Assembly (NCBI GenBank): GCA_963666205.1
Contig: OY762654.1
Coordinates: 1,760,001 to 1,824,000, forward strand
Direction: 5' to 3'
DNA from: Synergistales bacterium
Lineage (GTDB): Bacteria > Synergistota > Synergistia > Synergistales > JAFGMB01
DNA length: 64,000 nucleotides
Below the pieces are notes generated by a model. The model did not search any database, had not been told where the DNA came from, and was given only the letters and a program-made list of their open reading frames with translations. A program made the position numbers and the translations under genes. Positions within the stretch are counted from its first letter, which is position 1. Every line of letters begins with the position of its first letter. Below, one piece after another: positions 25,429 to 29,111 of the stretch.

Positions 25429-25806
25429 GTGTCAGAAAAAAATACCTATGTTATCTGGACAAGGGAAACATTGCTGGAAATGGCTGAAAAGGCGACCCAT
25501 GGCAGTAACCCCGAGGGTGGAGTGTCCATCTCTTTTCTTCGTCAGGAGAACGAGTGTGCTGTAAACGTTGTAGAACTGAAGAAGGGGATCCCTTCTCATA
25601 GGCATGTGAGACATGATGAGATAATCCAGATACTTGAAGGAGAGGGAAAAGCCGTAATTGATGGAGAGGAAAAACAACTCAAACCTGGAGATGTACTGTT
25701 CTGCCCGAGAAATATCTCTCATTCCCTCCATTTTCCAGTCAAACTTCTTTCCATATACACACCCTCCTTTGATCCACGGAATCCGGACAGGATCTTCGAT
25801 AATTAA
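25429..25806 (+). CDS. Cupin-domain protein
   Basis: HRH..HDE..LEGEG and LKPGDVLFCPRNISHS cupin motifs. Confidence 0.85.
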   Translation: MSEKNTYVIWTRETLLEMAEKATHGSNPEGGVSISFLRQENECAVNVVELKKGIPSHRHVRHDEIIQILEGEGKAVIDGEEKQLKPGDVLFCPRNISHSLHFPVKLLSIYTPSFDPRNPDRIFDN

Positions 25807-25936
25807 AAGAGAATCATTTAATGGGCTGTCCTGAATGGGATAGCCCATTTTTACAGACAGGTTTCGGGAGTGATCTGTAAAAGGGGCCAAGCGTAATAAT
25901 TTGCAGGACCATAGTGTTTGAAGGGATATGGATAAA

Positions 25937-26278
25937 ATGAAAAAAACCCGCAAGATAAAAATATACATGGAAAGACCCTACTCTTCCGTTTGCTGAAGTA
26001 ATTTCTGCTATGGAGAGGAAGAGATGAAATCCTTTCCCATGAAGGACAGCCGTGTGCTGGTCGGTAATATTCTGGGGAAAATAAGGGAAAAATATGGATC
26101 CAGGGTGAGCATAAACATATATGATCCAAGGTGCTACCTCTGGTTTTTCGATCTTGTAAGGTTCAACGTAAGGGCTACTGAAGCAACATGGATCATGGAT
26201 GGGAAACTTCTGGCCAGGGGCGTTCCATCCTGGGAGGATCTTGAAATATCCATTGATGAAAGGCTTGAGAAAGAATGA
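25937..26278 (+). CDS. Small thioredoxin/ArsD-like protein, candidate selenoprotein (in-frame TGA at 25994-25996)
   Basis: ATG 25937 reads MKKTRKIKIYMERPYSSVC*SNFCYGEEE directly in frame into track ORF 26024..26278; C-terminal WIMDGKLLARGVPSWEDL is Trx-fold-like. Confidence 0.6.
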
Positions 26279-26357
26279 GCTGTGGTAAAATAATCCTGCC
26301 TTAATCGAGTTTTCCATCAGGTTGGTTTCATCCTTTTTCTTTGAAGGTGGGTTTGTT

Positions 26358-29111
26358 ATGACCGGAGACGAAAGAAACAGAATTTCCTCAGAACGGAGTC
26401 CCTCCGTGGAAAAACCCGTCCTTGAAAGTGAAAAGGTGCCCTGCTCTTCTGAAGAGAAAGGTAGCGGCCTCCGTCGGGAGATGCATATACCCCTGGGATT
26501 AAGCAGTCTGATATCCTTCCTCATAACCGATATTCAGGGAGAGGAAGCTTCTATAATGTCAACAAGCAGCGGAGCAGAACGACTTTTCGGTTATGGTCCG
26601 TCTGAAATGGCGGGTCAGCTCCTTTCGTCCATTATGGTTCCAGACAGGGTGTGCCGCCTTCCTGTTATTTTCGGCAAACTATCGGCCACTAAAGAGGGAT
26701 ACAGTTCAGAGACAGTCCTTGCAAAGCGATCGGGAGAACTTTTTCCTGCGCATCTTAAGGTCTATCCTGTGCATGATAAAGATGGTAATGTGGTACAGGC
26801 CCTTTTTTTTATCACCGACCTTTCCTCCCGTAAAAAACTTGAAAAGGAACTCTCCAGGAGCGAGGAAAAATTCCGTATTCTCATTGAGAATTCTCTTGAT
26901 ATCATAACCATCCTTGATCACGATGGAACAGTGACCTATCACAGCCCTTCTGTCAGGGATGTCCTCGGTTATGAAAAGGGTGAACTGCAAAGAGCCAATA
27001 TTTTTGACAACATACATCCTGAAGATTTCCCTGCGACTATGTCCGCCCTCGCTGAAGTATCTAAAGATCCAGGTATTCCAAAGGTCCTTGAACATCGTTT
27101 CAGAGATAGTTCCGGGGCCTGGAAGATATTTGAGAGCCGGGGTAAGGCTCTTATATCCGGTTCTGGCCTTGAAGGGATAATTGTAAATTCCAGGGATATT
27201 TCCGACAGAAAGGAAGCAGAGAGGGAACTTTCCCGCCGTCTTCATTTTGAGGAGACCCTTTCGGAAATATCAACAAGATTTGTCCTGACACAATATCTGG
27301 ATGAAGCGATCAACACTTCCCTTGAACAGCTCGGTCTTTTCAGTTGCGCAAGTCGTGCCTATATTTTTACAATTGACAGGAAATCCGGAACAATGAGCAA
27401 TACCCATGAATGGTGTTACAAGGATATAGAGCCCCAGATAGATCATCTCCAGTTCCTTCCTCTCAATAGCTTTCCATGGTGGATGAAAAGACTTGAAGAA
27501 GATGGAGAGATAGTTATTCAGGATGTATCCAGCCTTCCTCCGGAGGCATCTGCCGAGAAGACTATCCTCCAGGAACAGGGGATAAGATCCATCCTCGTAC
27601 TTCCCTTTTATTGTGCCAATTCGATCAGGGGTTATGTGGGTTTCGACAATGTGATCTCCACCTGGGCCTGGGAAAAGAAGGACATAAGACTTCTCAAGGT
27701 CTATGCACATATCCTTGGCCAGGCTTTTGAAAAAAATGAAACTTTCCGTTCCTATCAGTCCAGCCTCCAGTTCAACCTCAGTCTTCTCAACAGTTCTCCA
27801 AACCCGATAATGGTTCTTGATGCACAAGGTTCAATAACCTATGTAAATCCTTCCTTTGGCAGGGTATCAGGCTATACCTTAAAGGAAGTCAGGGGCATGA
27901 GAGCCCCTTATCCCTGGTGGCCTGAAGATGACGTGGAGGATTGCCTCCGGGAACATGAAGCCCTCTTAAGAGGTAATAGTACAGCAGGAGAGAAACGGTT
28001 TATATCCAGCAAGGGAGAGACTTTCCGGGTTTACATAAATAGCTCTCTTATAAATGGAGAAGAAGGGGAGAACCATTTCCTGGTTAACTGGCTCGATATC
28101 ACAGAGCGGTATCGGGCAGAGAGGGCTCACAGGGCTTCAGAGGAAAAATACAGATCTCTCGTGGAAAACCTGAATGAAATAATTTATTCACTCAACAGGG
28201 AAGGACATATCACTTTTATAAGCCCTGTTGTAAAAGCATTGCTTGGATATGAAACATCGGAGATGGAGGGATGCGCCTTTACTTCCTTTGTTCACGAAGA
28301 TGACAGTTACGCTGTGGAGGCAAGCCTGAAGGACCGGTGGGCTGGCATTCCGGAAAAGTATGAGCTCCGCATGATCAGCAATGAAGGTAAAGTACATCAC
28401 GTGCTGGTTTCGTCAAGACCCCAGTTTGACGGAAATAACGTAGTTGGTGTTATCGGCTCCCTCAGCGATATCACAGCCCAGAGGGAAACGGAGATCAAAC
28501 TGGAGGCAAGTTACAGAAAGCTTGATGAATTGATGGATGGAGCCGCATCTTCCATAGTGTCTCTTCTGGAGATAAGAGATCCCTATTCAGCCGGACATCA
28601 GAGACGGGTATCCATACTCGCTACGGCAATTGCAAAGGAAATGAAGCTTAAGGAAGAACAGGTGGAAAATGTAAGAATTTCCAGCCTTGTCCACGATATA
28701 GGAAAGATCCATATACCAGCTGAGATACTCAGTAAGCCATCAAAGCTGAGAAAAACGGAATTCGAACTTCTCAAGGCTCATCCCCGCTCGGGTTCTGAGG
28801 TCATACATAAATTCGCTTTCCCTGAGATCATCGGAGAAATAGTGCTCCAGCATCATGAGAGATTCGACGGTTCGGGTTATCCGGATGGTCTGAAGGGACA
28901 GGAAATACTGCTTGAGGCCAGGATCCTTGCCGTGGCAGATGTTGTGGAAGCTATGGTTTCCCATAGACCCTATCGTCCGGCCCACAGTTTTGATGAAGCC
29001 CTGGAGGAGATCTCTTCAAAGAGCGGCATTCATTTCGACCCTGAAGTTGTAGTTGCCTGTATCAGTGTCTTTTCAAAAAAAGGGTTCTTCGCAGGGTCTT
29101 CCAGTATCTGA
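26358..29111 (+). CDS. Cytoplasmic multi-PAS/GAF HD-GYP phosphodiesterase
   Basis: Repeated PAS ends (DISDRK, DITER, DITAQR), GAF region, RDPYSAGHQ, HDIGK and HHERFDGSGYP. Confidence 0.9.
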   Translation: MTGDERNRISSERSPSVEKPVLESEKVPCSSEEKGSGLRREMHIPLGLSSLISFLITDIQGEEASIMSTSSGAERLFGYGPSEMAGQLLSSIMVPDRVCRLPVIFGKLSATKEGYSSETVLAKRSGELFPAHLKVYPVHDKDGNVVQALFFITDLSSRKKLEKELSRSEEKFRILIENSLDIITILDHDGTVTYHSPSVRDVLGYEKGELQRANIFDNIHPEDFPATMSALAEVSKDPGIPKVLEHRFRDSSGAWKIFESRGKALISGSGLEGIIVNSRDISDRKEAERELSRRLHFEETLSEISTRFVLTQYLDEAINTSLEQLGLFSCASRAYIFTIDRKSGTMSNTHEWCYKDIEPQIDHLQFLPLNSFPWWMKRLEEDGEIVIQDVSSLPPEASAEKTILQEQGIRSILVLPFYCANSIRGYVGFDNVISTWAWEKKDIRLLKVYAHILGQAFEKNETFRSYQSSLQFNLSLLNSSPNPIMVLDAQGSITYVNPSFGRVSGYTLKEVRGMRAPYPWWPEDDVEDCLREHEALLRGNSTAGEKRFISSKGETFRVYINSSLINGEEGENHFLVNWLDITERYRAERAHRASEEKYRSLVENLNEIIYSLNREGHITFISPVVKALLGYETSEMEGCAFTSFVHEDDSYAVEASLKDRWAGIPEKYELRMISNEGKVHHVLVSSRPQFDGNNVVGVIGSLSDITAQRETEIKLEASYRKLDELMDGAASSIVSLLEIRDPYSAGHQRRVSILATAIAKEMKLKEEQVENVRISSLVHDIGKIHIPAEILSKPSKLRKTEFELLKAHPRSGSEVIHKFAFPEIIGEIVLQHHERFDGSGYPDGLKGQEILLEARILAVADVVEAMVSHRPYRPAHSFDEALEEISSKSGIHFDPEVVVACISVFSKKGFFAGSSSI

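Follow-up and report, generated by a model that had tools for sequence, protein, structure and literature searches.

In a 64,000-nucleotide (nt) window of a complete, 2.95-Mb Synergistales genome (contig OY762654.1; the window is the whole stretch of DNA analyzed, and positions are counted from its first letter), sequence comparison indicates that an in-frame TGA at 25994-25996 very probably encodes selenocysteine (Sec) in a real but misannotated selenoprotein gene. Our overall reading, to which we give a probability of roughly 0.78, is that the locus is one gene for a 113-residue cytoplasmic thioredoxin-fold selenoprotein acting as a selenol/thiol oxidoreductase. The frame runs unbroken from ATG 25937 across the TGA into the annotated 84-amino-acid (aa) open reading frame (ORF) 26024..26278, and reading the TGA as U gives MKKTRKIKIYMERPYSSVC-U-SNFCYGEEEMKSFP...EKE, 113 aa from 25937. 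A first-pass annotation had proposed this frame, with ATGs at 25928 and 25937 in phase with the TGA and the ORF, a Cys adjacent to the TGA, and another Cys four codons on; all of these are present in the window sequence. Its suggestion that gene callers had cut a 113-aa thioredoxin-like selenoprotein to 84 aa is supported by the homologs, the Sec machinery of the genome, and the predicted fold.

In a six-frame search of 61 related genomes, 30 had matches, which extend over query residues ~3 to 116 and span both sides of the TGA. Of 35 matched stretches, 31 full-length copies were aligned (alignment A1), leaving out a partial copy containing N (G054), a C-terminal fragment (G052), and two N-terminal fragments (G020 and G036). 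The TGA stands at the exact same column in 18 of the 31 homologs, and the other 13 have Cys (12) or Tyr (1) there, so the read-through search that the first-pass annotation had suggested did find Cys or TGA at this position. The 18 Sec forms are spread across several families and genera of the order. The UGA thus lies in frame between conserved coding sequences on both sides, and it has both Cys-aligned homologs and UGA orthologs in other Sec-using organisms. In a phylum-wide profile search, 98 of 268 genomes, representing 38 of 76 genera, had the family; 73 of the 121 matched stretches hold an in-frame TGA, a row count in which the column was verified for the 18 only.

The codons preceding the TGA behave as coding sequence as well. 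Over the 14 codons before it, the summed entropy by codon position is 13.7, 9.4, and 20.5, with third positions the most variable, and close pairs differ mostly by synonymous changes (8:0, 5:1, and 3:1), a pattern indicating that the upstream segment is under purifying, codon-periodic selection. The same genome (G000) carries a second copy, also with TGA, at C1:2188455-2188781 on the plus strand (locus L053:1498-1827). This paralog is 52% identical, has the motif S-C-U-A, and sits between genes for a 2-hydroxyacid dehydrogenase and a CitMHS transporter, a layout repeated in a genome of the same genus (G001).

Three further copies show other changes. Those of G020 and G036 (loci L051 and L052) keep the first ~40 residues including the TGA (…KPYTATCUTSYQY…) and then lose the frame; they are probably pseudogenes of an ortholog of the type found in G043. 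The ortholog in G001 has a second in-frame TGA (L024:1762-1764) at the near-invariant Trp85 (ACA TGA GTC versus ACA TGG ATC), a position that is Trp in all other members. Possible explanations for this second TGA are an error in sequencing, recent inactivation of the gene, or another site of recoding.

The genome has the means to decode UGA as Sec. All of selA, selB, selC, and selD, whose presence the first-pass annotation had put forward for checking, were found: selA (565 bits) lies next to selB (364 bits), the tRNA-Sec score of 77 bits is above the gathering score of 47, and selD carries an in-frame TGA of its own. All four exceed curated cut-offs. Other genes with Sec codons in the genome are two copies each of grdA and grdB and an fdhA-like gene. 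The grdA and grdB genes form two clusters, each with Sec codons, at C1:1003112-1004944 and C1:2666504-2668039, and the Sec insertion sequence (SECIS) hairpins of both grdB genes have a GGU loop and differ by compensatory changes (UCGUUGC/GCAACGA versus CGAUGC/GCAUCG).

The annotation in use corresponds to a different reading, in which the TGA is an ordinary stop, the product is the 84-aa protein from ATG 26024, and the 19 upstream codons are a leader ORF or an ancestral remnant. We consider this very improbable. An apparent ribosome-binding site (RBS), GGAGAGGA (26012-26019), does lie 4 nt before ATG 26024, as the first-pass annotation had cautioned, but it forms the 5' arm of a hairpin discussed below and is base-paired there. 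Every database call for a Sec form is the short form, and the SECIS evidence is moderate; yet none of the 18 aligned Sec forms has lost the TGA or the frame ahead of it, the upstream segment is under purifying selection, and TGA-free forms have Cys at the aligned column. The short form would also be without strand 1, the central strand of the sheet, and without the sole near-invariant chalcogen residue. Finally, Met30, the internal start, is common in Cys forms too, which do not require it.

The start of the full-length gene is well placed. Homologs do not begin at the 26024 Met, a possibility raised in the first-pass annotation, and have a conserved upstream segment with its own Shine-Dalgarno sequence and start. 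In the window, GAAGGGA lies 10 nt upstream of ATG 25937, and we regard this ATG as the likelier start because the same-genus homolog has the second ATG only. The chosen starts in the 31 homologs (28 ATG, 2 TTG, and 1 GTG) all lie upstream of the conserved first strand, and most follow a purine-rich GGAG/AGGG stretch, usually a good Shine-Dalgarno sequence, at 5 to 12 nt.

Public databases show the effect of the truncation. A word-indexed search gave 14 close clusters, and an exhaustive profile search of 1.84 billion representatives gave 65 clusters at E ≤1e-3. These split into full-length Cys proteins of 109 to 141 aa and shortened proteins of 69 to 95 aa, the latter starting at profile positions 24 to 29 or further downstream; those that start at 24 to 29 begin just past the TGA. 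Sec forms were seen only as truncations of 78 to 90 aa. All source names are "hypothetical protein" except for one UniRef label, "Thioredoxin-like fold domain-containing protein," and the organisms are labeled Synergistales, Thermosynergistes, Synergistaceae, or Aminobacterium. Annotations list this gene, the second copy in the genome, and dozens of orthologs as hypothetical proteins of 78 to 90 aa, without their first strand and active residue.

A hairpin downstream of the UGA is a candidate SECIS element, for which we find moderate support. It begins 15 nt past the UGA, has a predicted energy of -12.6 kcal/mol, and carries a G at the second loop position; the loop begins 26 nt after the U of UGA. 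A similar hairpin 15 to 20 nt past the UGA recurs in Sec forms, even where the encoded peptide differs. In each of the 18 Sec forms, folding is more stable than in synonymous resamples that preserve the protein (mean z -1.25), compared with a mean z of -0.13 for the Cys forms (n = 13; Mann-Whitney p 5.5e-4 for Sec versus Cys, not phylogenetically independent). No such structure follows the terminal TGA at 26276 (z +0.55). The first-pass annotation had drawn a different hairpin, ttctgct-atgg-agaggaa; the string is there at 26003-26020, but it is neither the minimum-energy structure nor kept in relatives. Rfam gave two chance matches to snoRNAs and no others at E ≤10.

The sequence around the Sec residue differs from the C-U-x-x-x-C motif of the first-pass annotation, which is not conserved: its downstream Cys is found in 2 of the 18 Sec forms. 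Immediately ahead of Sec, 12 of the 18 have Cys, 5 have Gly, and 1 has Ser. What is conserved is [C/G]-U together with a distant cysteine in a DP[RK]C motif, present in 17/18 Sec forms and 0/13 Cys forms, which read DPRN or DPRS. The wider set has exceptions, namely, a Cys form with DPRC (P0018) and two shortened, presumably Sec, proteins with DPRS or DPRN (P0025 and P0026). Four members read V-C-U-G-G, and some Cys-type members read S-C-C or G-C-C. Across alignment A1, E12, D63, P64, P97, and W99 are invariant, and R39, W85, and G95 are nearly so. In the phylogenetic tree, Sec and Cys forms are split by one branch (support 93/94), which makes the correlation between Sec and DP[RK]C a single evolutionary event. 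Since G002 and G003 hold both types, the two are paralogous subfamilies.

Structure prediction places the family in the thioredoxin fold. The AlphaFold2 model, built on the 31-sequence alignment with U modeled as C, reached a pLDDT of 88.4 and a pTM of 0.79. Its elements are a strand (residues 5 to 10), a β-hairpin (15 to 18 and 21 to 24) with C19-U20 at the tip, a short helix (27 to 30), a helix (36 to 56), a strand (57 to 62), a helix (67 to 75), two strands (84 to 87 and 90 to 94), and a final helix (99 to 111). As modeled, this is a thioredoxin fold with a strand-helix-strand-helix-strand-strand-helix core in which the loop following strand 1 carries the active residue. The best Foldseek matches are thioredoxins with weak E values (6e-3). 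Against 48,161 representative chains, VIA-align returned mostly thioredoxins, with Z 9.8 (root mean square deviation [rmsd] 2.6 Å over 85 residues), and SelW-like proteins at Z 8.4 to 8.5. A second look with VIA gave a best Z of 10.8 (rmsd 2.5 Å over 88 residues) and 277 chains at Z ≥8, and the best 50 listed are all thioredoxins or thioredoxin fusions. Model residues 1 to 111 align to residues 18 to 108 of Escherichia coli thioredoxin, which puts Sec20 in the loop that bears the WCGPC active site of thioredoxin.

Links to named families are remote. Neither the read-through nor the short form had a usable match in Pfam or NCBIfam, and the Pfam models Thioredoxin, Glutaredoxin, and Rdx do not match the window protein. 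The nearest named family appears to be Thioredoxin_3, the only named family to which a link is detectable from sequence. PF13192, its model, does not match the window protein at E ≤1 and matches one of the 31 members at E 0.004; its two matches in G000 are both at other loci. The connection runs through distant relatives that bear CxxC: hhalign of the family against these gives 99.3%, and these relatives in turn reach 92.8% against canonical Thioredoxin_3 and score 24.9 and 25.0 bits with PF13192 (cut-off, 24.8). Aligned directly with canonical Thioredoxin_3 proteins from the same genomes, the family scores 42.7% (E 2.5e-4) across 38 columns at the C-terminal end. A protein-atlas query with a natural Cys-form homolog gave only leads: besides clusters of the family itself, these were an archaeal cluster of hypothetical proteins (0.86), one in which Thioredoxin_3 makes up 13% (0.85), and DUF1462 (0.82). 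The only matches in a profile search of PDB sequences, short and local ones to the RNA-free RNase P HARP (E 4e-5, ~39 residues of helix), were rejected as spurious because the fold is thioredoxin-like.

On this basis, we can outline how the protein might work. The UGA would be decoded as Sec by SelA, SelB, tRNA-Sec, and SelD, probably aided by the 26009-26041 hairpin. Sec20 would then act as the nucleophile on a disulfide or other oxidized substrate, either the adjacent Cys19 or Cys66 in the DP[RK]C loop would resolve the resulting selenenylsulfide, and a cellular reductant would recycle the enzyme. By thioredoxin topology, the invariant residues should lie on the same sheet edge as the Sec loop, which suggests a defined substrate pocket. 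Taken by itself, we give the oxidoreductase mechanism about an even chance.

That sheet edge could also hold the ligand of a single-chalcogen carrier, in which a persulfide, perselenide, or mixed disulfide would form on Sec20 or Cys20 and its cargo of sulfur, selenium, or a small thiol would be passed to a partner. The Sec/Cys column is the only near-invariant one among chalcogen residues and some Cys-type members are single-Cys proteins, as such a carrier would allow. However, none of the genes has a sulfurtransferase, SelD, or cysteine desulfurase as a neighbor, and nothing favors a carrier over a redox role; we think this quite unlikely.

Less far-fetched, though still unlikely, is a soft-metal or metalloid binder or chaperone like ArsD, in which Sec20, Cys19, and Cys66 (plus Cys24 in this genus) would provide three or four ligands for As(III), Hg, Cu(I), or the like. 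In most Sec forms, two or more cysteines accompany the Sec. The first-pass annotation had likened the protein to ArsD, and a colinear thioredoxin-fold resemblance is what is left of that: both have an N-terminal strand followed by vicinal chalcogens (CC in ArsD and CU here) and a DG....G..P...EL element near the C terminus, and a weak alignment places [C/G]-[U/C] on the Cys-Cys of ArsD and DGKLLARGVP on DGKIVLAGRYP. The metalloid site of ArsD is Cys12-Cys13-Cys18, and the corresponding CCxxxxC pattern is visible in the ArsD alignment. In the window family, by contrast, the vicinal pair occurs in 12/18 Sec forms and the third, unconserved Cys in 2/18, with a spacing one residue shorter, and a single-Cys member of the Cys type would be unable to build such a site by itself. 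An hhalign comparison with eight ArsD sequences of the order gave 0.8% (E 0.066), and the ArsD model PF06953 found no match among the 31 members, even with the E cut-off relaxed to 10. This model detects ArsD in 8 of 121 genomes of the order but not in G000, and in G045, the only genome with both genes, ArsD is on a different contig. ArsD was not among the listed matches of Foldseek, VIA-wide, or the second VIA look, although absence from these lists is no exclusion. Nor does gene context point to metals: among 93 neighboring ORFs at 30 loci there is no ars, mer, cop, or thioredoxin-reductase gene, none of the genes is next to arsA or in an ars operon, and matches to the ArsB model are weak side-hits of the CitMHS transporters beside the paralog. 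The 2026 review of selenoprotein families does list metal and organometal proteins (SaoL, HgcA, and MbdU) among families with adjacent C-U.

Several observations weigh against the oxidoreductase selenoprotein that we prefer, or against parts of it. Some Cys-type members have one Cys in the whole protein, which argues against a universal two-cysteine redox cycle, and the presumed proximity of Sec20 and Cys66 is suggested by thioredoxin-fold topology. The contrasts between Sec and Cys forms, in hairpin stability and in DP[RK]C, are one event each and not independent replicates. The neighborhoods vary among the 30 loci, with no conserved functional partner in the 93 ORFs. As to the hairpin, that of the window is not significant alone (z -1.31, 19/200 shuffles as good; z -0.83 versus synonymous resamples), RNAalifold found no consensus structure, and an 8-bp helix in fixed register did not covary more than shuffled controls (77.1% paired versus 76.3%). 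Some Cys forms retain a similar hairpin, because the peptide GEEEM.SFP itself encodes one. The 10-nt loop is also looser than in the known SECIS elements of the genome, those of selD, grdB, and fdhA, which have tight GC stems and GGC, GGU, or GUU loops 20 to 29 nt past the UGA.

The features of the locus are collected in Table 1. The gene is probably its own transcription unit, since a strong intrinsic terminator (-21.1 kcal/mol, z -5.24, 0/200 shuffles fold as well) parts it from the upstream cupin gene at 25429-25806. A scan for consensus promoters and terminators gave nothing useful and overlooked this terminator. Metatranscriptome contigs cover 25865-26273 and 25886-26103, beginning downstream of the terminator, and the TGA is kept in environmental variants; such contigs are weak evidence because they show neither transcript ends, strand, nor translation. 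Downstream, 46 nt past the selenoprotein gene and with no terminator in between, lies a gene for a 929-aa cytoplasmic sensor with several PAS domains and an HD(-GYP-type) domain (26322-29111, plus strand). Cotranscription is possible; apart from this genome, G001 is the only one in which the two genes were seen together.

Table 1. Positions of the selenoprotein gene and associated elements in the window
Feature	Position	Strand	Remarks
Intrinsic terminator of upstream cupin gene	25820..25852	+	13-bp stem, GAAU loop, U-run
Shine-Dalgarno-like GAAGGGA and likely start	25920-25926; ATG 25937-25939	+	Alternative ATG at 25928
Full selenoprotein coding sequence	25937..26278	+	113 codons plus terminal TGA 26276-26278
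TGA read as selenocysteine (residue 20; very probable)	25994..25996	+	Tip of β-hairpin between strand 1 and helix 1 in the model
Candidate SECIS hairpin	26009..26041	+	5' arm 26009-26019, 10-nt loop AGAGAUGAAA 26020-26029, 3' arm 26030-26041
Internal ATG (Met30)	26024..26026	+	Used by gene callers as start of 84-aa ORF; within hairpin loop
Arg65-Cys66 codons of DP[RK]C motif	26129..26134	+	Follows strand 2; Cys66 may be the resolving cysteine or a co-ligand

At the other loci, neighbors include glgA and glgC, a lipid-A acyltransferase with a CLC channel, uracil-DNA glycosylase, PCMT, and a 2-hydroxyacid dehydrogenase with a CitMHS transporter. In five genomes, an ORF of ~150 to 165 aa with no Pfam match at E 1e-5 lies directly before the Cys-type gene on the same strand (L034:1898-2380, L037:1820-2305, L039:1011-1505, L040:976-1449, and L036:1019-1459). 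This ORF, in turn preceded by a lipid-A acyltransferase gene, is the only recurrent close neighbor seen. In G002, an AhpC/TSA gene present as two ORFs (L056:130-870, minus strand) forms one frame with a TGA, ...FYPGDFTFVUATEL..., which is a known peroxiredoxin selenoprotein motif (TxxU). This gene is just upstream of two tandem Cys-type paralogs and beside a 2-thiouracil desulfurase (DUF523) gene.

We lean slightly toward regarding this as an undescribed selenoprotein family, largely of Synergistota, with a new active-site architecture for thioredoxin-fold selenoproteins and with Sec-type and Cys-type paralogs coexisting in some genomes. In this architecture, Sec would sit at the tip of an inserted β-hairpin next to Cys or Gly and would have coevolved with the cysteine of DP[RK]C instead of forming a CxxU or UxxC dyad. 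The novelty is that of a family within the well-known class of thioredoxin-fold selenoproteins; the family is not ArsD and is not a new kind of system. Neither the 87 families tabulated in the 2022 review nor the 119 families and subfamilies of the 2026 review include it. In the latter, every entry is linked to a model from Pfam, NCBIfam, cd, or PTHR, and none of the entries fits a protein that neither Pfam nor NCBIfam recognizes. No description of the family was found in the literature, with paper supplements, a survey of groundwater metagenome-assembled genomes, and BSepDB itself outside the scope. In their accessible parts, the deep-Sep report gives no new selenoprotein gene for its two Synergistota test genomes, Peng et al. 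2016 describe a search for known families only, and BSepDB is presented as gathering previously reported families. Synergistota has been singled out as a selenoprotein-rich phylum. If our reading is true, the family adds to the prokaryotic selenoproteome as the 2026 review counts it, and the coexisting paralogs offer a natural system for studying what Sec gains over Cys.

Compared with Thioredoxin_3, the window family shares a small stand-alone thioredoxin fold, a C-terminal strand-strand-helix, and the signature DG....G.(V/I)P..EEL. Unlike Thioredoxin_3, it has no CxxC at the start of helix 1, and its Sec/Cys is on an inserted hairpin ~16 residues before that helix. The closest entries in the review tables, the Thioredoxin_3 selenoproteins of Brachyspira, differ in the position of Sec. 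As described in the accessible part of PMC5330540, Brachyspira Sec.1 and Sec.2 are likewise small Thioredoxin_3-related selenoproteins with Cys paralogs that were missed or shortened in annotation; their Sec is in a short N-terminal extension before a Pfam-recognised Thioredoxin_3 domain, their genes are clustered, their motifs are CxU and UxC, and the domain of Sec.2 has a CxxC of its own while that of Sec.1 does not. Judged by that description, the window protein is unlike them in having its Sec inside the fold, a domain unseen by Pfam, and a gene that stands alone.

Most prokaryotic selenoproteins are of the thioredoxin-fold type with Cys homologs (2022 and 2026 reviews). With Sec-thioredoxin (UxxC), Sec-glutaredoxin, and the SelW-like proteins (CxxU), the window protein has in common a Sec in the loop after the first strand, the existence of Cys homologs, and a gene that gene callers shorten. 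It differs from them in its motif, [C/G]-U on an inserted hairpin instead of the usual UxxC or CxxU dyad, and in a candidate partner Cys that is remote, 46 residues off in DP[RK]C.

A final likeness is one of chemistry by analogy. Mammalian thioredoxin reductase has a C-terminal Gly-Cys-Sec-Gly redox center, and the insect form has Ser-Cys-Cys-Ser. The protein, its fold, and the position of its Sec are unrelated to those of the window protein, but both would have Cys and Sec side by side on an exposed, flexible element. The V-C-U-G-G members fit this likeness, and the S-C-C and G-C-C members of the Cys type similarly resemble the Ser-Cys-Cys-Ser of insects.

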